Made by a program: the position numbers and the translations under genes
The notes under the pieces: model-generated
Databases searched by the model: none
What the model saw: only the letters and a program-made list of their open reading frames with translations
What the model was told of the DNA's origin: nothing
Assembly: GCA_054600435.1 (NCBI GenBank)
Contig: BAAIJX010000008.1
Coordinates: 682,001 to 715,046, forward strand
DNA: 33,046 nucleotides
Direction of reading: 5' to 3'
Source: Neophaeotheca triangularis
Taxonomy: Eukaryota
In this document: piece by piece, positions 1 through 33,046 of the stretch
How the letters are laid out: every line of letters starts with the position of its first letter
Numbering within the stretch: the first letter of the stretch is position 1

Positions 1-639
1 GCATGGGATCGAATCATTCCTCGATCGCCTTCCTGCTCTCCTTTACACGAGAAGCGTCCCTGGCTGAAGATAGATTAAAACAAGGCGAGACATGAGTAGC
101 ACTGTTTCTCGGTATGCTCGTAGAGGCTCCTTTCTATATTGTCGGAAGCGGTAGTAATGGGCACATGTTGGGGTTTGCAAGCTTCATTTTATCAATTTTT
201 CGAGCTTTTCGCCTTCGACTCTCTTCCATCTTCACCTCACTCACTGTCAGTCGTTGCCATCAGGTGCCTCTCGCGCGAGGTGCATCTCAGTCACTCGACG
301 TGAGGTCCCGAGGTCGGCGGTCGGCCTTTGATGACTCGACAGACACCGAGACTGCCCCGCCCCCGCCCTGTCCTGTCTGACACCTTCAGAACAGCTCTTT
401 CACGTGCCAGTAGGTATGTACGGTACAGGTACCTAGTAGTCTTCACCCAGACCAGAGACTACCCTGGAGCCTTGAGGTGTTGTTCCAACCTAACCTCCCA
501 CTTCTACTTGACCCTCCGACCTGTGACTCAACATTCTCTCCACCATCTAACAATCTTCCGAACTTGGCCCAATACCATCAAATTACCTTATCATCCAAAT
601 CTCACAACCACCGCATCACCACCTCCCACCAACCCCACC

Positions 640-1798
640 ATGCAAAACATACTCCACACCGCACTCGACTCCCTCCGCGACCGTTTCGCCCCCCTCAACC
701 ACACCTCCAACTTCCGAACAACGGGCCAACTGACCCCCGAAGAATTTCTCCTAGCCGGCGACTTTCTCGTCTACAAGTTCCCCTCCTGGTCCTGGGCCGA
801 CGCCGCCACGCCTTCGAAACGCGTCGATTACTTCCCCCCGGGGAAACAATATTTGGTAACGCGCGGCGTGCCCTGCCACAAACGCATCAAGAACGATGAC
901 TTTGCGGGCGCCGCGGATGGCGAGGACCAGCTTGTGCGAGATATGTTGGCGGGTGAGGCGGGCGGGGAGGATGAGGGGTGGTTGAAACCCGCTGGCAAGG
1001 GGGACAGGGGCGGTATGAGCAGTAGCGCGGAAATGAGGAGGGATGTTAGGACCGTGGATGAGGCGGGGAATGTTGGGGAGGAGGGCGAGGGGGAAGAGGA
1101 CGAGATACCGGACATGGAGGATGAGGATGATGGGGAGGCTATTATTCGTGATGTTGCGCCGAAGAAGGGGGAGGATGGGTGAGTGATGCTATCGTCCTTG
1201 GAAATTGCTGCTGAGTGAGTGCTTGCTAAATGCTTTCGACAGACTCCGCAGCTATACTCTCTACATCACCTACACACCGTACTACCGCACCCCCCGCCTT
1301 TACCTTTCCGGCTATGACGCAGCGACAAATAAACCCCTCCCACCTCTGAGCATGATGGAAGACATTGTCGGTGACTACAAAGACAAGACGGTCACGCTCG
1401 AAGACTTTCCCTTCAGCAACCCACCGATCAAAACCGCTTCCGTCCACCCTTGCAAACACGCCTCCGTCATGAAAGTCCTCCTCGACCGTGCCGACGCAGC
1501 CCTCAAGATCCGTCTAAACAAAGCCTCCAAGAACGGTGAGAAACCATCAACTCAAGGCTTAGAGGGACTCGTAGACCAAACCTCCAACCTCGACATCAAC
1601 AAAGCCGCCGCCTCTTCGCCTTCAAAGACCGGCAGCGACAATGGCAAAGGCGGCGACGCGGATTGGGAAGTCTTGGACTCGGACTCACAGCAGGAACAGG
1701 AAAGCGCTATCCGCGTCGATCAGTACCTTGTCGTTTTCCTGAAGTTCATGGCTTCGGTGACGCCGGGTATCGAGCATGACTTCACCATGAGCTTGTAA
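640..1798 (+). CDS. ATG3: Autophagy E2-like conjugating enzyme Atg3; exons 640-1178 and 1243-1798 (364 aa)
   Basis: Atg3 motifs [39 protein letters not shown], acidic flexible region, [12 protein letters not shown], catalytic SVHPCKHA and C-terminal [27 protein letters not shown]. Intron 1179-1242 (GTGAGT..GCTAAAT..CAG, phase 2) joins the two ORF-track pieces in frame. Confidence 0.95.
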
Positions 1799-3975: not shown

Positions 3976-6217
3976 TAGGTGGTGTCAGGCTTGTGGAGGG
4001 CTGTGTGAGTTGTGTTGTATTGGAATTGAGTGGGTGGTTGTGGGTAGTTTGAAGTTGTGCTGTGTGTGTTGGCACCATGGAATCTTTTCATTTTGTCGCT
4101 AGGGCTAGAGAAGACTGATACCCCCTCTATGCATTTGTTTTTGAATCTGTTATTGGATATTGGTATTTCTGTTCTGGAGTTGGACGTATGCTTTGGGGTG
4201 AGGAAGTTTTCGCTTCTTTCCTTGCGCGCTAGACGGACCTTGAGGATACTATGAGAAGGTGGGAAGGAGAGCCGAACTACTTGAGGTCGGCGGGGATGGT
4301 AAGTGGTTCGGCTGCTGGCCAGGATGCACAAGTCTTAAGGGGGCGCAGTCGCAAACGGAGGAGAGCGCATCAGAACAAAACACACGGCAAGGCAGGCGAC
4401 ACCAACGCGACACTCTCTGGAGATTGGGATATTGGACACTTTTTCCACGACAATCGATGGCAGCACCCAAATGAGCCAATCTGTCGTTTGAGAGGCATCG
4501 AGTCAGGTGGCTCTCGCTGGAAACCCCCGTTACCCGCTTGAAGAGCATTCACCGACGGCATGCTATGTGTATCGACAATAACAAGGCAGCTGATCGCGGG
4601 GTTTGGGGGCAGACGGGCAGAGAAGGGAGACCCATGATCCCACCCGTGTGTTGCCACGTTGGGGTTGCACTTCCCGATGAGGTACACGGGACTGAGATTG
4701 CTGGGATGCAGGCACGGCGCAGGAACGGAAATAGCATGCTGACCGCTGCTGATAGCTTGGGGTTTCAATATCTACTCAGCCGTTGACGACGTTGTGTTCT
4801 GGCTTTTCAAGGCCGCCTCTGATCGCTTTCGCCCCAACAATCGAGCCGTGAAAGCGTGCAGACCTGCGAGAACGTCACTCAAGAACCGCAAGAGGCCTCT
4901 GGCGAACATGTTGCGTGAGCATGTAAGACAGCGGTAAGCAGCTGGCCGGTACGCGTGACTACCACGAGCATCTGCCGTGGCTCTGGGGGTCGAACTCGTG
5001 TGGCTTTATGCTGTACTACCCTTTCTCCGACGCTGTTCAGTGGTCGTGCTCTCGAGCTTTGCTCAAGTTCCCGCCCTGAGCTCGAGTCGGGAGCCTTCAC
5101 TGCCAAATCGGGTTGGAAGAGGAACTAACTACATCATTGCCTCTTGGAAATTCTACGAGAAGTTGCATCGACCCAAAGACGTAGACACGCATTGTACCAG
5201 ATACAAGCGTGTCTCGGACTTGACGAGCACACCTTGAGACTCCAAGACGGGCAGCCGGCAGCACTACACAACACAACACTCAATGGCAAGATCGCCTGCT
5301 ACGACCGTTGCACCCCAGCCATGCCGTGGCTTGCTACTCCTCGTCCCTTGTAAGAACGTGCCGACCGGGTTCTTTCAAGCCTTTCGGCACCGATTTCAAT
5401 TCAGCACCATTTCCAGGGTTGCAGGAGGGGTTGACAACGTTCGTGCTCGGTAGCGACGGGTTCCTGCAGGTCACACGATTTTAATATATATATCGGGATC
5501 TTACTCGCTCCTGGTCTGTAGCGCGAGTTACTTGGATGTATTTCTGAGCACCACGCATCCAAGGTTTTGCACTTACTTCTGGGTCGAAAAATATTGTTGT
5601 TGCCAATGCCTGCCGTCTTCAAAACTGTAAGACATGGTTCATGAAGTGCAGTGGCAACTTACCATACTATTTGACCATTCAACTTTTACACACCTCGAAT
5701 GCGGAACGGTTTCTGTATTAGCCGTCTGATCTTTCTGGAAGGGGTACCACAAGGTATCCAGCCTGCATCGCCATGGCAGAATACGAACTCCAGCACCTGC
5801 AGGAGGTCAACGTCGACCCAGCGTTCATTCTCGTGACTGCATCTCTATCTCCCAGCCGGGTATATCGAGGTCCCCACATACGCAACCATGCTCCGAGTAT
5901 AGCATTCGGGTGCTTCAACGGGCCTATGGACTGCAGAGACTCAGGGCTCCGTCCGACCCAACATCACTACCTCGACACCGCAGCCAATTTTGAACGCTGT
6001 TGAGATCATGTTGTGTCCGACCTGGTCAAATGCGGTGTTAAGTATGCTAGTTGTCACGCCAGGCGGCCAGAAGACGTAGAGCATCTGTTCGGATACAAGA
6101 AGGCTCGCAAGGCCTCTCACCGTACAATGTTTGCACGTCAGCGATCGTTGTCGCCTTCTCCCACACTCGCTTTACAATCGTTCAATTTCCACCGACGTTC
6201 GTTGACTTAGATCCAAC

Positions 6218-9466: not shown

Positions 9467-10058
9467 GAAAGAAAGAAAAGCGACGTTCCCTTGATGAGTT
9501 ACGAAAATTACGGTGATGGGATGAATTGAGCGAGCATAGATATTGCGACAACTGTGATGACTGAGAGGATGATAAAGTCTACCTTTTTTTTTTCTAATAC
9601 TTCTATGGGGGAGAGGGAGCGCTCGGGTCGAGCAGCTTGCCGGTTTTGGGTGGGGCTTGGATGGGTGGGTAGTTAGTATGGATATTGGAATGGTTGGTGT
9701 TGTCATCTATGTCTACCGCTTGTTCTTTGTTAACGCTCGCTGGGAATGCTCGCTTGTAGTTGCGGTGTTCCCGTGGTAGGCAGAAGATACCGTTATGACA
9801 GGGCAACGTGATTGTCCTTTTCACCTTCGGCTACAACTGAAGGGATCAGTCTGTGATCCATCTTTACCATCGCGCTTCTGGAATACAACTTGTATAGAAC
9901 ACTTGCCAGCTCCGTTCGAACACCACCATGGCGCCAGCGTCAGCACCGACCCTTAGTATCATAGGAATATGACTTATCTCTCATAGGTAGCCCACAATGC
10001 CTCTCCAAACTAAGTCCTTCTCAATGCCCCTCTTCTACCATCAGCGCGTCCTACCTCC

Positions 10059-18427: not shown

Positions 18428-20374
18428 TCACTTCTTGCCGCCTGCACTCCCCATCCACGAAAACGCGCTCGCTCCCCCAAGCGGATTCGACTTAGTCTTA
18501 GGCTTTTCTACAGCAGGAGCGGCCGGGCCAAGACTTGAATTCTCTACCCTCATACCTCCATCCCCTATAGCTCCGAAAGCCTTTCTGGAATCTTCGCCGG
18601 CCCCAGCTGAACGCTGTTTCCCTTCCTCAAAGAACCTGCTCCTACCATCGCCAGCGCTGTTAGTGCTCGTCGACATAGTAGCTGGAGCTGCGGAAGTAGC
18701 GGAAGAGAGCGAACGCGATGTTGTTTTGGGTTTGAGCACTTTCATGCCCGTGTCCCTTCGTTGGGCGGGGTTTGAAGAGTCCCTGTTGCGGCTTGCGGCT
18801 GCCCAGTCGAGGCTTGCATTGGCTTGGGCCGTGCTGCTTGGTGTTGTCGCCGAGGCGGAAGTGCGCCAGTTGCTCCAAATGGCAGGGCCGCTGCCTGTGC
18901 GTGAAGGGGTGCCTTGCTGAGCTGCAGAGTCTGACGTCTGCTCTGCGCTGCCTTCTGGGCGGGTGTTTAGCAGCGACAAGGGAGGTCGAGAGTTATTCAA
19001 CTGCATACTTGTGCGATGCGCTTCACTATCCGGAGTGCCGATATTGCCACCCCTTGTCGAGTCGTATGCTGACCCTTCTGCGGCAAGAGCACCTGGCGGG
19101 CGATACTTGCCTCCCAAGGGAGGACTTGCAGCAGCCGAGGACAACGAGACTGCAGAGCTGCCTTGACCGAGTCCGTTCAGGTATGGCTGTGGTGTGGCCG
19201 TTGGCTGCTCAAGGTCCGCCTGCGGCCTTTGACCGCTTGTGATATAGAGGTCCTTGAATGCGACTTCCCGCTCTGGGCGTACAAGTGGTATACTCAGCTT
19301 ACTCCTGTCATCATCAAATAGTGATATGCTATTAGACGAGAACAGAATGTCCGCGCTGTGGGCCCTGAGCGTGTCGCTGCCAATAAATATTTGGATCGAT
19401 TGGTCATTAGCAGCACCAGACTCGACCACTCGGAAATCAACGGTCAAAGTTGGCAGTTGTGGAACCGGGCTGTTCGACCTTGACGATGCAGGGTGTGGAA
19501 TGGCTTCGGGAAAATACACCGGTAATTGCACAGACCTGACGCCGTCATCGCTCGACACGATACTGTCCTCGAAGCCAAGTTTCTGTATCAACCGCAAGTC
19601 AAGGTACGAGCTGTACGAACCCGTGCAGACGGCTGCATAAAGGAGCGCATCGTGCTTGAAGTTGGTGTTCATCCAGCATCGGATAATGGCAGGCACAGAA
19701 CCGAGCAATAACATGCCCGGCGCGAAGCCAGGTGTGTCCAGTGGCGATCTACTCGAGTCTCCAAAGCTGTAACCTGTCAGACTGTTGGCGCGGCCAGAAG
19801 CAGCAGAGCGCATGGAATGGGCGGAGCTGGCCCTGCCATCGGACTTGTGCGACCCAGATCGCTCGTTCATTTGAAGGCCGCCAAGTCCGCTGCTAGTCCG
19901 TGAAAGGTAGTCGACAGATGGTCTGGAAGAATGTGCCGAGTAGCCCTGGTTGGCGGTCTCGTCAAAGCGCACGCTGTTTGCGCGCGAGGCCGCGCCCATC
20001 CCTCTGCGTGGCTCCTCCTCCGGGTCCAAATGCAAGCTGCTCATCAGGTTGTTGGCCTCGTCGTCAAAGTTGCGAAATTGGTCGGCCGGGGGATGTTGCA
20101 GGGGAGCTAATTCGGTAAGTGTTAGCCATGCCCGGACTTTGAGGATGACAGCATACCCACCCTGCTGAGGCGTCCCACTAAGCACGCCTGGAAAAGGACT
20201 GGTGTTACCCCAGACGCTTTTCATACGAGCATCGTCATCCAACTTTCTCTCCACCCGTGCCAGTCGCTCTGAATGCTCAGCTTGCACCTGCTGTACCCTT
20301 CCTACGTCGCCCTGTAAACGCCAAATGTCGTGATTGCTAGAGCCGGGCGTAAAAGCTGCGCTTTGCGGATCCAT
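18428..20374 (-). CDS. Uncharacterised protein: N-terminal coiled coil, Ser-rich linker, retropepsin/Ddi1-like domain with Cys at the catalytic position, disordered tail; probable in-frame intron 20160-20107
   Basis: 648-codon ATG ORF; LLYAAVCTGSYSSYLDLRLIQKLG...IFIGSDTLRAHSADILFSSNSISL; 54-nt GTGGGT..GCTAAC..TAG intron candidate. Confidence 0.85.
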   Translation of the reverse strand: MDPQSAAFTPGSSNHDIWRLQGDVGRVQQVQAEHSERLARVERKLDDDARMKSVWGNTSPFPGVLSGTPQQGGYAVILKVRAWLTLTELAPLQHPPADQFRNFDDEANNLMSSLHLDPEEEPRRGMGAASRANSVRFDETANQGYSAHSSRPSVDYLSRTSSGLGGLQMNERSGSHKSDGRASSAHSMRSAASGRANSLTGYSFGDSSRSPLDTPGFAPGMLLLGSVPAIIRCWMNTNFKHDALLYAAVCTGSYSSYLDLRLIQKLGFEDSIVSSDDGVRSVQLPVYFPEAIPHPASSRSNSPVPQLPTLTVDFRVVESGAANDQSIQIFIGSDTLRAHSADILFSSNSISLFDDDRSKLSIPLVRPEREVAFKDLYITSGQRPQADLEQPTATPQPYLNGLGQGSSAVSLSSAAASPPLGGKYRPPGALAAEGSAYDSTRGGNIGTPDSEAHRTSMQLNNSRPPLSLLNTRPEGSAEQTSDSAAQQGTPSRTGSGPAIWSNWRTSASATTPSSTAQANASLDWAAASRNRDSSNPAQRRDTGMKVLKPKTTSRSLSSATSAAPATMSTSTNSAGDGRSRFFEEGKQRSAGAGEDSRKAFGAIGDGGMRVENSSLGPAAPAVEKPKTKSNPLGGASAFSWMGSAGGKK

Positions 20375-21459
20375 CGCACGAAGAACTCATTCAAAGTCTC
20401 GAGCAATCTTTCGATCGCTGGTGATGAATGCGCCCCACTGTGAATATTCCAGGTAACGCAGCCTGCTTGCGATATGCTGCTTATTTCCTCCGCCCAAGCA
20501 CAGCTTGCGGCTGCGTGCCGCTTCTCTGTATTTTTCTCTTATGCCACGATTGCTAACGATGATGTTAATGTGTTGTAAGCTATAGCAATGCCGAATCTAC
20601 TACGCTAGTGGGTGATGTAGCCGGCTGAGTTGTAGACCGGATCCGTTCAGGTAGGGGATCGTTCTTCAATGTAGTTCCGGAAGACCAATCTGCCTATAGA
20701 GGCGAGCGTGGGCGTGCAGCAACTATACTTGAGCGATGTTGACCACTGGTGAGGGTTGCTGGGCGGAGAGGGGATCGTTGGAGGTTTGTAGGCGGCGTCT
20801 TCACGGTGCTCTTGTGATGATACAGAAGATGCAGAGGTTCTGGATTGGTGCTTTGGGACAACGTTGCTGGGCGAGCTCGAGGCAGCGAGGGAGGGCGAGT
20901 AAATGGTGGTGATTAGGAAGTAGTGATGTATGTGATGTATTGCAGAAGGGCAGGTGGATGCACTCTCCCGCGAGTCAACTTCGGGACAGGAAGTTCTAAA
21001 ACGGCGCTAGCATTCGCTTAAGCAACCAGTGGCGTTCTTCACGTGGGGGAGGTGGATCCCAATTGTGCTTCACCTTCACCTCACCTCTCCTCGCCTTCCT
21101 TCACTTCACACTATCTTTGGATCAATTTCTAGCTTACCCAATGCACTTTTTCGTATGCAATAACACCAACCCTCGACGCACCGTCTGAAGTGCTGTCGGT
21201 GATGTGACACGGCCTGGTGTCGAGCCCCCCTATTCAGGCCATTCAACCAGCCTCCACGGACCGACTGTTCACACTAGGAACATGAAGGGTATAAGACAAA
21301 TAGCAAAGTTACCCCCGGCCACGCTTGACTCAATCAGCATCGCAAAGTGGACCTCAATCCGGCGAATTGATATTTGGTGACTGCGACTTTCACTCCGTCG
21401 AACTGCTCTTGGTCTTGACCGGAGCTAAGAAATGTGAGCGAAAGCCCGACACTATAGCC

Positions 21460-21750: not shown

Positions 21751-22120
21751 TTTTAGCGTCCAATCCGTCTTCGTGATTTCAATGAGTGGCGTTAGACCAG
21801 TCCTTATTTGCGGATCAGGGGTAATGATGTCTGGAACTGCGCCGGAAGTAGGGAATGAACAAACAAAAGCGACGGCCCGTCGTCTGTTTTTGGTAGAGAC
21901 TGCAGAACATTCAAAAGTCTCTTGAACCGCAGGAGGTACGCCGGTCAATCTGTGGTGGTTATGCAATCCGAGAGCGTAGATTTGTCGCGGCAGGATAGCA
22001 TGCTTTCGCCTGTGAGTATATGAGATAAGAGACAAAACAAGAGGAGCGTAGTGCAAGAGCGAAGGCTGCACAACACCAGTCCACAACGCCAACCTAACAA
22101 TGCCTTCGAAATATCCTTTC

Positions 22121-22142
22121 AAAAAGAAAAGGAAAAAAAAAA
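22121..22142 (-). terminator. Oligo-T Pol III-type terminator
   Basis: Minus strand reads T10-CC-T4-C-T5 immediately after the closing stem of the putative ncRNA. Confidence 0.6.
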
Positions 22143-22378
22143 CCGGGAGGGCTTGGACTGCTATCCGATGACGCAGCTACGACCGACTTTGCCGGGAATT
22201 GAACGCAGGACGTTCGCTTCCGAAAGTGGCTTGATTCTTAACTTCGTATGGCCAGCTTAGCGCGAGAATTGAACGCAAGCGTTCGCTTCCCTAAAGCGGC
22301 CGAAATCAGTTACTCTTACGCCCTGCTCCAGGAGGGGCACGCTCCGAGCGCGCATCACTGGTACCACGAGGCCCCGGT
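22142..22378 (-). ncRNA. Putative RNA polymerase III-transcribed structured ncRNA of unknown family (~237 nt)
   Basis: On - strand: ATATAT ~30 nt upstream (22410-22405); 5' ACCGGG pairs with 3' CCCGGT just before a T10 run; A-box-like TGGTACCAGTG near the 5' end; two GTTCAATTC B-box-like motifs in duplicated hairpins. Confidence 0.65.
22196..22290. repeat. Imperfect direct repeat (26 and 25 nt), each containing a hairpin
   Basis: GAATTGAACGCAGGACGTTCGCTTCC (22196-22221) versus GAATTGAACGCAAGCGTTCGCTTCC (22266-22290). Confidence 0.95.
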
Positions 22379-22856
22379 TATGACTAAGTGCGCTGTCGGG
22401 TGGCATATATTGTGTTGGATGTATGAAGAGGCGCTCGGGCCCCTAGACAACATTTTATTGGGCTCAGCGCCTTAGGCATTACTTACTTCAACTTGCTTTG
22501 TGGTCTCTTTCACTTTGTGGTGCAGTTGCCTAACTTGCCCTTCACTCCGCCCGCTATTCACTGGCTTCTCCAGAGTTCAATGCTTCTTGATATTGGTTTG
22601 TTTTCATTCAGATTAGCTTCATTGGCAAGTGGCAGCGCGACCTCAGTACAGTCTACACTCCGGTGTGTCACAGCTAGCAGGTTCTTCATTCCCGCTCGGT
22701 CCCTACTCCAATCTCCCCCGTAGCAGATTTGAATAGTAAGAAGTTGGGACCTTACGCACTAGCCACGCAGTAGGTATCTACCTTCTCTCAGCATACCTGT
22801 GTCGTGCAACTCCTTTTTCCCTTGTGTCTGAAATCGTGGAATAGAAGCCACTTACT

Positions 22857-23479: not shown

Positions 23480-24923
23480 CGGGTTCCGTGTAGCGTCCTC
23501 GGCGGGATGCGGAAGATCCGGGGGTCGTTCACTGTGCTAGCGTTTGGTTGACAGCCGACGAGCAATGCGACGGGCCGGGGGGGTTCACTGCGTGCGGGAC
23601 GATGTTCAAAGACGCCGGGAGTCGTTCAAGTAGATGAACATCAGCTTGACGCAGTGGAGGCGTTTGCCTAAGGTCGTCTCTCTCGTGATTTCCAAGCCAT
23701 TTTCTCGGTCCGATAGTGATGGTAAAAACACAATACCATGCTAAAAACCTATTGGGAGCCAAGAGACCTCCTGTCGGCCTGGCACATATCGAGGCGGCAC
23801 ATGGCTGCTCTTGCAAGAAATCTGAGAGAAGTATGGGATAGTAGCATGCTTTGCAGACTTCACTCGATGTCTTCGGATAAAAGTGGACCACTCCGGGCTT
23901 GCGGGCACTGTTCCCAATGTGGCGAGGGATTCGATGGAGAAAGGACGGCCGAAGCCGCCCGGCTTTCAGCCCTGAGTATCTAGGTACCTACCTCCTACTA
24001 GTAGTCCAGCGTGTCACTGAGCGGGGGGATACACAGCAGGGCATGTGGGACAATGTCAATTGAACGTCACCTCAACATTTTCAGGTTCTTAAGTTGTCTG
24101 CAATCACACCTGGGCAGCCTTCACGGGGCGACAGCTTGATTCCATTGTAACACCTCACTGTGAGACGGCGGGCTAACGCAATGGCGAGTGCCAGCTACTG
24201 TATCTGTACCTGCCCATTCACGGCTGGCCAAGCTGCGGCAACAATTGCGCGGCATGTGTAGGACGGCGCCAACGCCATGGGAGGAGGCACAGGTACTCCC
24301 CTCAACATCAACCTCACCGGCTTCCTCCTTCCAAGATAATTATCAGTGTTGCCTGACACCTGCAGCTTTGAGTAGTCACTTCAAGACCTATAGGTGCCCA
24401 TTCCACCCCCTCTTGCCTCGCTTTCATTCCTTCACCTTCACATTGAGAAACCACAACCATCTAAGTACCCATCGATACTGCGGACAAACAACTCGCATGT
24501 AGGTAAGCTATCTACCTTAATGTGCACGACACCACCGCCATGCCAGCAAATCTAGGCACGCACCCAACACCTACACCTCTATCTCAACCCTCGCGTCCGT
24601 CTGGCTAGCCTACATACATGTCCTCGCGCCCCAAGCAAACCGTCCGAGACCTGCGCACCTCCTACGAGACTCGTCTCACCGCACAAGCCTCATTTCAATC
24701 ATTGTCAAACTCCAGAGCAATCGCTAACACGACTATGGCACCTAAAAAGAACCTGTACCCCTCCTACTCCCATCCTTTCTCAAATTCAATCGACGACCTC
24801 GTGTCCAGCCCCACGTCTTTCCTTAACCCGTCTAGGACAAACCAACAGCCGCTCGCCAGTCCAACGCCAACTTGGATTGGACCCGTCATTCAATCAAGAC
24901 CCGCTACTCCCGGAGCGAGCACC

Positions 24924-26361
24924 ATGAAGCAACCGACCACCGTTCACTACACCTCCTCCGGTCTCAAGCCTCCCGTCTTCATCATCACCAGCTTGAGCGA
25001 GCCACAATGGGACGTAGTAGAGATGGAGCACTCCAAAAACGCCAAGGGTGAGCATGAGTTTACCAAGACGTTCAATGCTGAGCCGGGTCAGTACCAATAC
25101 AAGTTCAGGCTGGGTCCAGGAGATTGGTGGGTCTTCGACGAAGACAAGCCTACTGTAGACGATGGATTCGGCAACAAGAACAATCTACTCACCGTGAAGC
25201 CACAACCTTCGCAACCCGCCAAGCCATTGGATCAGGAAAGACTTACGCCTGGCCTTGGCGGACAGAGAGTATCTATTGATGCCGCACCAACTCCAGCTGG
25301 AACCACCCCTGCACCACTAATGGGCCACGAATCCTACTTTCCACAGCCCTCCAAGTCGGAGGAATCAGCAGCACTCACACCAGCTCCCGCCCCTCTCTTG
25401 TGGCACGAAACCAACGTTCTACCACCAGCTCAATCGGAGTCTTTTGGTACCCATCCGCCGATCACCACAAACGACGAAGGCTCTGTCCACCCTCTCCTTC
25501 CCCACGAAGCCCTCTCTCCCGATACGGCCGAGCAACATCACTCTCCTCTCTTCCGCCACGAATCCAACGGCCTGCACAACCGCCACGACGAGCCAGAAGA
25601 CCTCTCACCATCCAAATCCACCAAGACGCACAAGCAAGTTCAGGAAGAAGCGACCCACACCGATCATCACCTCCTCGACAAATTTCCTACCGACGAGCAG
25701 GGTATCTTGGACACTCTGCGCAGGGCTTCCGGGCAAGCATCGCTGGCCGAGGGAGCCGCGGATGCTGGTGCGAAAAAGTCACCAGAAAGCAGAGCCGTGA
25801 GCGATGGCTCAGTGACAGCACTGGAAAGCGTCAAGGAGGATGAGGTTGCGGAGGGACAAAGCCATATCCACGACTCAGTAACAGTAGACCCCAGACCCAA
25901 AGCACCCGCGACACCGCCTTTGACACCAGCCGAAGGCAAAGAGCCCGAGAGCAGGAACGCTTCCGAAGACGATGCCACGCGGCGCGAAGAGCGCGAGCAA
26001 GCGGAACTCGATGCCGACAAGACCGTCGCTGCGAGCAAGGGAGCGCTGCAGTTGGCCATGTGGTTCGTGACAGCGATTTGGCAGTGGCTGGTGCTTTTCG
26101 CCCGGGGCAAGAAACCTGTGCCGTAAGTGTCAGTTTGACTCTATTGGAATTGTTTGTTGAGTATTCAAAAAAGCTTGCTGTACCTATGAGGTCCCGTGTG
26201 GCCTGTTTTGGCAGTTTTCTTCTTGAGCTTTTGTGCTTAGCTTACTGTGCGCCTTTTCGCTGACTTGTACCGGGGGTCTGTTTGACAGGTTGATCGCTGC
26301 TATTAGTGGTTTGGTTATGGGTATGGCTTTGAGGAAGGAGAAGAACGCGACTGGGGCTTGA
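24924..26361 (+). CDS. CBM48/AMPK-beta glycogen-binding-like domain protein with hydrophobic C-terminus; exons 24924-26122 and 26289-26361 (423 aa; upstream in-frame ATGs from 24618 possible)
   Basis: PPVFIITSLSEPQW...EPGQYQYKFRLGPGDWWVFDE..TVDDGFGNKNNLLTV matches the AMPK1_CBM pattern (YQYKF..G.W....P...D..GN.NN). ACC-ATG context at 24924; intron GTAAGT..GCTGAC..CAG at 26123-26288. Confidence 0.8.
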
Positions 26362-29283: not shown

Positions 29284-29816
29284 TTGGGTGAGAGATGGGG
29301 GTGTGATTGGTTGGCTGGTGCACTTGTATGTACAGCGTGAGTTCTGGGTGTTTTTTTGGTTTTCTTTTTGGGTGGGTGGGGGTGGGGGTGGCAAACGCGA
29401 GGAATCTGTCCATGATGCCCCGCCCCCTGGAGTGATTCGGCGACGCGGTGTTTGGCGTTTTCCTCGGACGCAAGGGATCTCACGCCCGCCTGGGGGGGAG
29501 GGGAGCTGGGATAAGGATTTTTCAACGTGCGATTGTGTATGTGCTGGACCAAGCACGAGGTTCTCTTTCCCTGCAGAGAGGGAGGAGGAGGAGGAGGATG
29601 AAGAGGGGATGTTACGATTTCCGCTTGCTTTTTTTTTTTTTTTTTCGCTCTTCAGACGAGAGTCGTGGAATGTCTGTTTTGGATACAACGACGTGCTGCT
29701 AGGCGTTTTCTTTGTATAGAGTTGGTCGGAAAGGAAGGTTGGACTCTCACGCCACTGGTCGTTCGTTCGCGCGCGTGATGCGAGAGTTCAATATTGCATT
29801 ATTAGGGAGATAGGAA

Positions 29817-29849: not shown

Positions 29850-31909
29850 ATGTCCGGAGCGCTAGCTAAAGGGGCTACGAGTACCAAACCACGTTTTGCG
29901 TTTTACAGTAGCCCCGACGGGTCTTGAGGGCGAGATTACTGGTGCTCTAGACTTGAGTGTAAAGGTGCTCGCTCGGGCTGTGGAGATGTCGCGGGCGTGT
30001 CACGTGTGTCAGGCCACTGGGCGGGCTTTTGGAAGCTAGGTAATGAAAAACTGTAGGTCTGTCTCGGGGGAAAGGCCAGCGGTTCGACGAAGCCTTTGCT
30101 CGTGGAACTGCGGGCCGGGTGTGTTACGACGAAGGAAGATGGAAGCTTGGCTTGGGTGCTGCGAGCAATAATAATAGGGAGTGATTTTGGCAAAGGCTGT
30201 TGAAGGCTAGCTAGGGATTTGGAGGGAGGTGTTGTTTGTGAATAGTGTATGGCATAGGGCACGTTTGCTGCTTCGGAAATGGAAACCTTGGTTCTTTTTT
30301 GTCCGTTGAGGCTGGTGTTGTTGTTGCGCGTTTTGATGGTCTGCCGCCTGAACATGGCTGCGTTATACTACTTTGGTGTGCGTTGTCACGGCTTTGTCAC
30401 GCTACTGGGCAAACCGTATGGAAGAGTCAAGACGGTTCGCGCTCGGGAATAATAAGGGGGGTCCCGGCGAGACGGGAGTCCGGGATGAGGTTCTGGGGAC
30501 TGTGATGCTTCGAGGGAGGTATCGGAAGGGAAGGGAAGGGGGGGGGGAGGGAAGGGTAGGGTAGGGAAGATTCGGGGGGAACCGGCTTCGCTGGCCGTAT
30601 GCAGGTTCCAAGTTGTCGAGAGCGAGTTTGATTCGCTACCTATGGCTATCTTGTCAATGGCGCTAAGTTCTGGATGTCTGTGTCTGCAGGAGAGGAGCTA
30701 GGGAGAAGGTGAGGTGGCAGAAGTAGAGGTTGACCTGCGCCGGCAAAACTAAACTTTACTAGCGATCAACAACATCACCTCGTCACGGTTGGATACCTTA
30801 GCTACTGACATTGGAAACGTCGACGATGATGCTACACCACGCAATAATAATATTAATACCAATATTAATGGCAGGGCATGATGGTTGCTGCTGTCATGAA
30901 ATAATGAGCAATGAGCAACGACTGACGTTCGTGTGATTATTGCCACCGCCGCAAACCCGAATCTCAAGATCGGCGACACACTCGGTGGCACTACAGAAAA
31001 TCCCTCTTGACCACAAAGTGGGCCGAAAACGCTGGCGTCAACCACAATGCTGGAAAGACCGTGGCGTGACACGGCACACTATGCCTTGTGGACCATGATT
31101 ATGAACATGGTGCTACTATGTTTGTATAGCAGCAAAAGCGTTGCGATTACGCCTCAGGGGCAATAATAATGGAATTGCCTTTGCGGCCGCCGAAGCGCGC
31201 CGGATAACTCTACGCGCTCTAATTGCACCGCGCACGAGTACGGGAGCCATTTCCGGGAGTCTTGTTACTACTACTACTCTTACCAGCAGCCTTACGAAAC
31301 TTGCCAACGTTATTGAACAGTGCTTGACTTCAAGCGATCCCTACTTTTTCAGCCGAACTGAAAAAGCACAGAGAGAAAAAAAAAAAGACCTTCAAGATCT
31401 AGATCGTGACATGCAGCACTACTACGATACGCATACCCCCCCCTTTTCGCTACCGGATCTCGCAATCAACACCCTGTCGACCACTAAACACCGGCCCTGT
31501 CGCTCTTCTTCTGCTATCTACTAGCTCCGCGAGCGCGACCGTTGCGTGACTTTCCGTCCTCTCTTCTCACTCTAACTTTCTTAAGCTTGGTCGATGATAA
31601 CGAGAGAGATCATGGAGGTAGGCATCCTGCAGAGATTGGGCGAGCTATCGTGACTCCCAACTATCGTGTGACTACTCGCTTCTCCGAAGTCCCAACAGGT
31701 AGGGTTCTGCTGCCAACGGAATGGGCTGAGATGAGGTGGTGGTTTTGTGTATAAGAGGTTGGTCGAGGTAGGTTGATTGTCTCTCTTCTTCTCTCTCCTG
31801 TCCATCCAGCACACTTTCCCAAGCTTTCGCCCCCCCCCGAACTCCATCGCTTCAGCGTAATCGCCGGCTCAAACGCACGAATCCTTTACCAACGAATTCA
31901 CCTCTTAAT

Positions 31910-32283: not shown

Positions 32284-32970
32284 AGTTAAAAAAGACAGGA
32301 AAAAGAGCGGTTGGGAGGCTGATTCGGGGAGGATTATGCTGATGATGGTTTGAATGGAGAGGGGGACTGGGGTAATGCAGTGGTGGCTTTGCCATGGCCA
32401 CATGACTGGCCACGGGCACCGGTTTCGAGCGAGCGTTTGTCTTTTGTTTTCACGAAGCAAGCGTGGCGTTTTTTGCTTGCTTTTCTTTTTTGGGACTCGC
32501 GAGGGGTTTTTTGAGCGTTTCTGTTCTCAGCGTTGGGCAGGCGGGTTATATCTTTGACGACGATGATGATGGGTGTAGCTAATGTCTAAGCTGTTTCAAA
32601 AACGGAAATGTAACATTTTACCTCCCTGCCTACCTTGCCCTGTTGATTGTGAGAGAGTGGGAATGGTTCAACCCCGTCTTGTGTTCTTTTTCGTTGTGTT
32701 GAGGATTCCCTTTTTCGGGAGTTTTGGAAGACTTGGTCTCCCGGCGCAAGAGGTGGCAGATTCTGGCATGTCTGCCGTCGATTCCTTGGGGTAGCGGATA
32801 GGGGAGAAGCAGCAGAATGGGGTGAAGCGCTAGACGCGGGGAGGGCGATGACTAGCCCGGGAGTGAAGGCCGCGATGGAAACAGCGCAGTCATTGTTCAC
32901 GCTACTCTTTTCCAATGCGCATCAAGAAGCTATAGCGGCGGTGCTCAGAGGGAAGCTTGGCATAGAAGCT

Positions 32971-32995: not shown

Positions 32996-33046
32996 TAAAA
33001 ATAAAAAAAAAAAATTTAAGGTTTATTTTGGAAAAGTATAAAAAAA

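Follow-up and report, generated by a model that had tools for sequence, protein, structure and literature searches.

A putative single-copy Pol III gene for a structured non-coding RNA with two duplicated hairpin arms in an intergenic region of Neophaeotheca triangularis

On the minus strand of the window, by which we mean the whole analysed stretch of 33,046 nucleotides from N. triangularis, a compact intergenic unit was found that may well be a single-copy, lineage-restricted Pol III gene. Its putative transcript would be a structured non-coding RNA (ncRNA) of ~240 nt from an undescribed family. We assign this reading a probability of about 0.5; drawn from one genome and a single close relative, the evidence makes the interpretation a plausible one. 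A more tentative extension of it is that the unit could represent the first member of a hitherto undescribed family of structured Pol III RNAs in filamentous ascomycetes. Such RNAs would carry the B-box word within a duplicated helix, offer two identical protein-binding modules and form the scaffold of a dimeric RNP, with a standing like that of the animal Y, vault and 4.5S RNAs. The motifs from which a first-pass annotation had deduced the unit were confirmed from the sequence at their places on the minus strand. The features considered below are compiled in Table 1.

The unit occupies a non-coding intergene, which is bordered by a minus-strand ORF (652 aa, 18428-20386) on one side and by a plus-strand ORF starting at ~22845 on the other. 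The flanking ORFs thus lie on opposite strands and point apart, which makes the intergene a divergent one. An ORF scan of the locus yielded no ORF of more than 78 aa crossing the unit, and the use of P0001 (75 aa, 22248-22472, plus strand) as a query for spurious ORFs over the locus in relatives gave no candidate. The proposed RNA body is bounded by the TATA-like box at -30 and by the T10 run; within these bounds there is no T run of four or more, the longest internal one having three residues. The gene content of the window is eukaryotic and comprises an Atg3-like gene split over two ORFs, a USP-type deubiquitinase, an HLH protein, an SDR and an AMPK-CBM protein (24609-26126). The earlier designation of the unit as a fungal ncRNA gains indirect support from these eukaryotic genes with split ORFs and from the size of related assemblies, which at 32-36 million letters is in the range of a fungus.

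In order to determine the copy number, a check which the first-pass annotation had proposed, the contigs of three DNA runs of one study (X1, X2 and X3) were matched to a 1.5-kb stretch at a likeness of at least 80%. X1 is the probable source assembly and X2 a relative with ~95% identity. One of the 56,312 contigs of X1 fits the stretch at this threshold and spans the unit unbroken. Of the 124,999 contigs of X2, two adjoining ones fit; they meet at the T run and represent one locus. X3 leaves the stretch uncovered and carries no information either way. At a likeness of at least 80%, the unit therefore appears to be single-copy in X1 and in X2, and no second copy was detected in the window.

Table 1. 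Features of the candidate unit. Positions are those of the window, and RNA numbering starts at the proposed transcription start.
Feature	Position	Strand	Remarks
TATA-like box ATATAT	22405..22410	-	-32 to -27 from ACCGGGG starting at 22378
Proposed RNA body	22138..22378	-	RNA 1 = 22378; ~237 nt plus short U tail
Terminal stem P1, 5' strand ACCGGG	22373..22378	-	predicted to pair with RNA 232-237, P 0.75-1.0
A-box-like word TGGTACCAGTGA	22355..22366	-	RNA 13-24
5' hairpin GCGCGCU-CGG-AGCGUGC	22337..22353	-	RNA 26-42
Arm 1	22250..22301	-	RNA 78-129; long irregular hairpin with 2x2 GC/AA internal loop and CUUG loop
B-box-like word 1 CGTTCAATTCT	22265..22275	-	RNA 104-114; 9/10 compared to GGTTCRAnYCY (hand count)
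Arm 2	22181..22230	-	RNA 149-198; sister of arm 1
B-box-like word 2 CGTTCAATTCC	22195..22205	-	RNA 174-184; 9/10 compared to GGTTCRAnYCY
3' hairpin	22157..22177	-	RNA 202-222; present in MFE structures of the reference and of the X2 variant
Terminal stem P1, 3' strand CCCGGU	22142..22147	-	runs into the T run and uses its first T
Terminator-like T10, then CCTTTTCTTTTT	22121..22142	-	T10 itself 22133-22142

The promoter-like and terminator-like signals were compared with those of known Pol III genes. For the tRNA genes of S. pombe and plants, a TATA element is located at -30/-24; box A (TRGYnnARBGG) is usually found at approximately +12 to +22 and box B (GGTTCRAnYCY) at +54 to +64 (PMC7279448, excerpted text). 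The ATATAT box of the unit was present, as previously noted, ~30 nt 5' of ACCGGGG. Besides this place, its sequence occurs in the window in a single cluster only (5484-5488). The A-box-like word TGGTACCAGTGA, of which TGGTACCAGTG corresponds to positions 22356-22366 of the minus strand, matches box A in seven of the nine specified positions without a gap and in eight of nine if one extra base is allowed (hand count). A relaxed A-box pattern with the extra base has 32 matches in the window; because it is so common, the word is weak evidence if taken alone. The A-box-like word of the first-pass annotation was recovered, at +13; its agreement with the consensus is weak.

In both B-box-like words, CGTTCAATTCT and CGTTCAATTCC, the one mismatch to box B is the first G, which is replaced by a C. 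The pattern.GTTCRA.YC has six matches over both strands of the window, two of which fall into the unit. With starts at +104 and +174, the words lie at a greater distance from the A box than is usual (+54). They are 70 bp apart and both are located within the duplicated hairpin module of ~50 nt. At the other end of the unit, the terminator-like T10 run was found where it had been described; it directly follows the terminal stem. Runs of at least eight T residues occur five times in the 33-kb window, both strands considered. Poly(dA:dT) runs are frequent in fungal intergenic DNA, and the T10 run alone is therefore little proof. The joint placement of TATA box, start, terminal stem, T10 run and two B boxes is unlikely to arise by chance; a rough estimate, which was not computed, is well below 1 in 1000.

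The internal duplication of the arms is real. A local alignment of RNA 79-123 with RNA 149-192 gave identity in 38 of 46 columns and a score of 46, compared to 13 ± 2.2 (maximum 21) in a shuffle control (n = 500). Two occurrences were counted for the module GAAGCGAACG-N(3-5)-CGTTCAATTC, compared to an expectation of zero from 100 shuffles. TRF reported an A/T-rich run only and did not pick up the 70-nt duplication. The two long sister arms of the first-pass annotation were thus recovered, and each arm alone folds as it had been drawn; 5/200 shuffles folded equally well. For arm 1, the minimum free energy (MFE) was -21.2 kcal/mol on the minus strand (z -2.04) and -17.7 kcal/mol on the plus strand (z -1.34). 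For arm 2, the corresponding values were -15.6 kcal/mol (z -2.03) and -15.0 kcal/mol (z -0.93). The poorer folding of the plus strand mildly favours an RNA made from the minus strand over a DNA palindrome.

The stems of the arms are short and interrupted, with ~17-18 pairs including the 2x2 loop. GAAGCGAACG is the pairing partner of the B-box word in both arms, leaving the 2x2 GC/AA internal loop. Furthermore, the complementary strand of each arm contains a weaker B-box-like word, CGTTCGCTTCC, which matches in 8/10 positions (hand count). It had also been claimed that the stems flanking the core differ between the copies and still pair in both. This applies to one compensatory pair, G82-C124 in arm 1 compared to A152-U193 in arm 2 with the adjacent bulge retained (hand reading of the folds), and to one C-to-U wobble change, and does not extend beyond these. 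The proposal that the duplicated element is a B-box or protein-binding module fits the sequence in that a 9/10 match to box B is present in each arm.

For the whole molecule, the predicted fold agrees in part with the one originally drawn. The closing pair ACCGGG/CCCGGT corresponds to a 6-bp terminal stem (P1) with the high pair probabilities given in Table 1. The second closing helix, GTGATGCG/TGCGTCAT, can be written as 8 bp, three of which are G-U pairs; its ensemble probability is 0.003, and a penalty of 3.7 kcal/mol results if it is forced together with P1. This helix is not supported by the folding. The same holds for the small GCCC..GGGC hairpin, which had a z-score of -0.40 when folded alone and a probability of 0.0 in the whole molecule. 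Located at RNA 41-59, it competes with the 5' hairpin at RNA 26-42, for which pair probabilities of 0.81-0.99 were computed in the reference and of 0.66-0.82 in the X2 variant. The model prefers a long-range helix, 55-59/227-231, by which the terminal stem is extended. Of 200 shuffled sequences, 30 fold as well as the full-length molecule, whose z-score of -1.15 does not set it apart from chance. Being imperfect palindromes that resemble each other, the arms are also able to pair mutually: cross-pairing of the arms dominates in the reference (P 0.88), and the local arm hairpins dominate in the X2 variant (P 0.64-0.77). Due to this alternative arm-arm pairing, the architecture is ambiguous and only partly determined.

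The comparison with X2 gave a modest signal of constraint. Relative to the window, the RNA body differs by five substitutions and one inserted base in 245 nt, and both flanks together by 62 substitutions in 1253 nt (body compared to flank, Fisher p 0.025). The 89 nt immediately upstream of the start carry ten substitutions (22419-22467; p 0.001), and the ATATAT box is identical. The divergence thus falls from the proposed start onward; an equally unchanged stretch also extends over ~50 nt past the T run (22083-22132). Numbered along the RNA, the body shows C2U, an insertion at 23/24, C42U, C44U, U74C and U156C. In the MFE model, C2U and C42U retain wobble pairs, the former with G236 in P1, and C44U and U74C fall on unpaired positions; in arm 2, a U-A pair is broken by U156C if the register does not shift. 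These changes are compatible with an RNA under constraint and are weakly informative. With one relative of ~95% identity as the sole homologue found, the comparison falls far short of a covariation test.

None of the known RNA families was recognized in the unit. With Rfam 15, no match was obtained for the whole window at the gathering score, and no relevant match for segments of 751 and 261 bases with permissive filters and E up to 10. The matches at E up to 10 were noise, namely U6atac (10.8 bits) and sR14 (8.7 bits), both on the opposite strand. ARAGORN predicted no tRNA, whether introns were allowed or not, and the covariance models of tRNA and 5S rRNA found nothing at E up to 10. Likewise, no match to the models of SRP, RNase P and MRP RNA was obtained in the 261 and 751 bases, even with permissive filters and E up to 10. 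That the first-pass annotation could not match the unit by eye to tRNA, 5S, U6, SRP or RNase P/MRP cores agrees with the results from Rfam 15 and ARAGORN. By eye, the unit showed neither a UGUAAU Alu motif nor CR-I or CR-V. Readings as an H/ACA RNA, a C/D RNA, an RNase P RNA with CR-I/CR-V or a heat-shock element were dropped after inspection by eye against the respective consensus patterns.

Judged from these motifs, expression of the candidate gene could proceed as follows. TFIIIC would bind to one or both B-box-like words (RNA 104-114 and 174-184) and to the weaker A-box-like word (RNA 13-24), and TBP/TFIIIB would be aided by the ATATAT box at ~-30. Transcription would start near A22378 and end within the T10 run. 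In the predicted fold the ends are paired, with the 5' hairpin, the two sister arms and the 3' hairpin in between; the two arms would stem from the internal duplication. Because the B-box word of each arm faces its complement GAAGCGAACG in a helix, both blocks would be constrained twice, as promoter DNA and as part of an RNA helix. Such a double constraint would explain why these blocks are identical in both arms, whereas the loops and outer stems have drifted. With respect to function, we infer that the RNA may be a stable scaffold on which one RNA-binding protein is bound as two copies or as a dimer. This protein would sit on the repeated GC/AA internal-loop modules, and the closed ends together with the U tail would protect the RNA. 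Complementary end regions are described to lengthen the lifetime of small RNAs (PMC3440375, excerpted text). The Pol III gene reading of the first-pass annotation is favoured by the distances between the signals, by the lack of an Rfam or tRNA match, by the single copy and by the lower divergence; two of its proposed helices are not supported by folding.

Several other explanations have to be weighed. The unit could be a TFIIIC-binding cluster of B boxes without a stable transcript, that is, a chromatin boundary resembling ETC/COC sites, where TFIIIC binds without Pol III, or a palindromic DNA element of another kind in a divergent promoter region. Two B-box-like words 70 bp apart, accompanied by the weaker word CGTTCGCTTCC on the complementary strand of each arm and situated as B-box consensus matches between diverging ORFs, would fit such an element; B-box-like words in a divergent intergene are common to the candidate and to ETC/COC sites (PMC3395662, excerpted text). 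A function at the DNA level would account for the lower divergence, too. An ETC site, however, needs neither a TATA box at -30 nor a terminal stem nor a T10 run, and all three are present here at gene-like distances. Together with the A-box-like word they make the candidate a complete gene-like unit, unlike ETC/COC sites. Hairpins of ~50 nt that fold better on the minus strand are not required of a DNA site either, and we consider this explanation unlikely. For yeast ETC sites, a conserved 10-base extension 3' of the B box is reported in the same excerpt (PMC3395662). Equally unlikely appears to be a precursor made by Pol III, the two arms of which are processed to small RNAs similar to milRNAs instead of residing in a stable RNA. 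In Neurospora, the most abundant milRNAs are Pol III-dependent, their loci are mostly intergenic, and milR-1 has TATA-like elements (PMC3547838, excerpted text). The candidate with its two ~50-nt hairpins in a Pol III-like unit resembles the N. crassa loci, as an intergenic hairpin-forming unit with possible TATA-assisted Pol III transcription. Differences are that A and B boxes are lacking at the milR-1 locus, that the stems of the candidate are short and interrupted (~17-18 pairs including the 2x2 loop), and that closed ends and extra hairpins are more like a stable RNA.

An explanation without any function assumes a chance coincidence of motifs around a 70-bp local duplication that became fixed in intergenic DNA. 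The full-length fold is ordinary (z -1.15), the A box is weak and the conservation is modest; moreover, the preceding search by eye entails a look-elsewhere effect, which counts in favour of chance. Against this stand rare features at fixed distances, i.e. the TATA box, a terminal stem directly before the T10 run and two 9/10 B words, as well as the fall of the X2 divergence at the proposed start. Coincidence therefore appears quite unlikely. The unit might also be a relic or a domesticated copy of a tRNA- or 5S-derived SINE. It contains internal A- and B-box-like words, and some short words in it seem 5S rRNA-like. SINEs related to tRNA and 5S rRNA are known from Aspergillus fumigatus (PMC5063351, excerpted text). 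One locus at a likeness of at least 80% in each of the two assemblies argues against a young SINE family. In addition, no direct repeat flanks the unit (22050-22450), where the sole family of direct repeats is the internal one; on the transcribed strand the unit ends in a T run, with no A-rich or LINE-like tail; and the tRNA and 5S models gave no match at E up to 10. A SINE origin is thus improbable. Finally, the RNA could be a very diverged member of a known family, with SRP RNA closest in topology and RNase P/MRP RNA next to be considered. The SRP and RNase P RNAs of fungi are Pol III products. With SRP (7SL) RNA the candidate would share, besides the polymerase, the closed ends and a central pair of neighbouring hairpins. 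This topology, with a closing helix and two hairpins side by side, resembles that of an SRP S domain, and the word GGAGCAGG at RNA 50-57 may resemble SRP helix 8. Yet none of the SRP, RNase P and MRP models matched even at E up to 10. In contrast to helices 6 and 8 of SRP RNA, the arms are paralogous copies of each other, and Alu-domain or helix-8 motifs were not seen, which renders this origin highly improbable.

If the unit is indeed a single-copy Pol III gene for an RNA with a duplicated module, it would add a further RNP to those of filamentous fungi. To our knowledge, the Pol III products of fungi form a short and seemingly closed list, consisting of tRNAs, 5S rRNA, U6, SRP RNA, RNase P RNA and a few oddities from yeast. 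The candidate would also be a clear case of the same bases being constrained by a promoter and by an RNA structure. Should it be bound by TFIIIC without being transcribed, it would exemplify an ETC-like boundary of a filamentous fungus. Among known systems, type 2 Pol III genes with a TATA box, such as the tRNA genes of S. pombe and plants, are alike in having a box B, a TATA element at ~-30, an oligo-T run and paired ends, and their internal box A near +12 has a weak counterpart in the A-box-like word (PMC7279448, excerpted text). Unlike tRNA genes, the candidate gave no tRNA match, its RNA would be about three times longer, and in place of a single B box near +54 it carries two, at +104 and +174. 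Boxes A and B, a TATA-like box at -31/-24 and a narrow taxonomic range characterize the small Pol III RNAs 4.5SI and 4.5SH of rodents (PMC7279448, excerpted text). They are ~100 nt long, belong to an unrelated lineage and have no sequence similarity to the candidate, which contains an internal duplication and is a putative RNA. An ascomycete precedent for an unusual Pol III unit of composite nature is described in the excerpt of PMC2566860; in contrast to that unit, neither half of the candidate is recognizable as a tRNA or a 5S rRNA.

Searches for similar RNAs were directed at the literature and at metagenomes. Among the matches listed for new Pol III RNAs of filamentous fungi there was no like RNA, and a full-text search for the motif words returned unrelated topics only, with no paper on a fungal RNA gene among the matches listed. 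A metagenome scan with the module pattern, for which exact words were required and a collection poor in fungal DNA was used, yielded 73 loci. A second module, or a further GTTCRANNC at a distance of up to 150 nt, was present in none of the 73. When the whole candidate was compared to these loci by means of blastn, only the module itself was matched, plus scattered stretches of 12-18 nt with E-values of 0.9 or worse. ARAGORN found no tRNA in the 40 loci to which it was applied. The scan thus yielded no homologue. In both of the loci checked (L005 and L001; Pfam), the module lies inside a bacterial thiolase gene. Three of the 20 loci scanned adjoin bacterial 23S/5S genes, and a CCT or CTT spacer is present in 45 of the 73.

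At the 3' end of the candidate Pol III-type unit, the window was compared with X2, a related assembly. Both X2 contigs covering the unit end at the T/A run at 22131-22134, where they would meet, and they give no length of this run for the X2 strain. Past the T run, the window and X2 are identical over the next 50 nt (22083-22132), where about 2.5 differences would be expected at the rate of the flanks. Because this segment is also free of X2 differences, the conserved block may continue beyond the proposed 3' end of the candidate RNA.

B-box-like words also occur on the opposite strand of both arms, the two sister hairpins of the unit. Each reads CGTTCGCTTCC and carries a C in place of the conserved A of the B-box consensus. 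TFIIIC could in principle bind at the arms in either orientation. On the plus strand at the arms, the CGTTCGCTTCC words are accompanied by neither a TATA element nor a T run. The sole full match to GGTTCRANNCC within the window is GGTTCAACCCC, around which ARAGORN detected no tRNA and Rfam gave no match.

Other features of the window, including the strand opposite the arms of the candidate unit
Feature	Position	Strand	Basis
Atg3-like gene, two ORFs (304-1182, 1187-1798)	304-1798	+	Pfam Autophagy_act_C
T run, at least 10	9584-9593	+	pattern search of window
B-box-like word CGTTCGCTTCC, opposite arm 2	22211-22221	+	8/10 consensus positions (hand count)
B-box-like word CGTTCGCTTCC, opposite arm 1	22280-22290	+	8/10 consensus positions (hand count)
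T run, at least 10	29629-29645	+	pattern search of window
T run, at least 10	31376-31386	-	pattern search of window
GGTTCAACCCC, full match to GGTTCRANNCC	32665-32675	+	pattern search of window
T run, at least 10	33003-33014	-	pattern search of window

Besides the T10 of the candidate unit, the window contains four T runs of at least 10 nt. An Rfam search of the entire window, these four sites included, yielded no matches.

Exact-word searches with the module, the two-word motif present once per arm, can be misled by bacterial thiolase coding sequence. In both loci checked with Pfam, among the 73 metagenome loci returned by the module scan, the opposite strand of its 23-nt form encodes E-L-N-E-A-F-A within thiolase genes.

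In the Atg3-like gene the Autophagy_act_C profile runs on from the first ORF into the second, consistent with a frame change between them, probably at a short intron.
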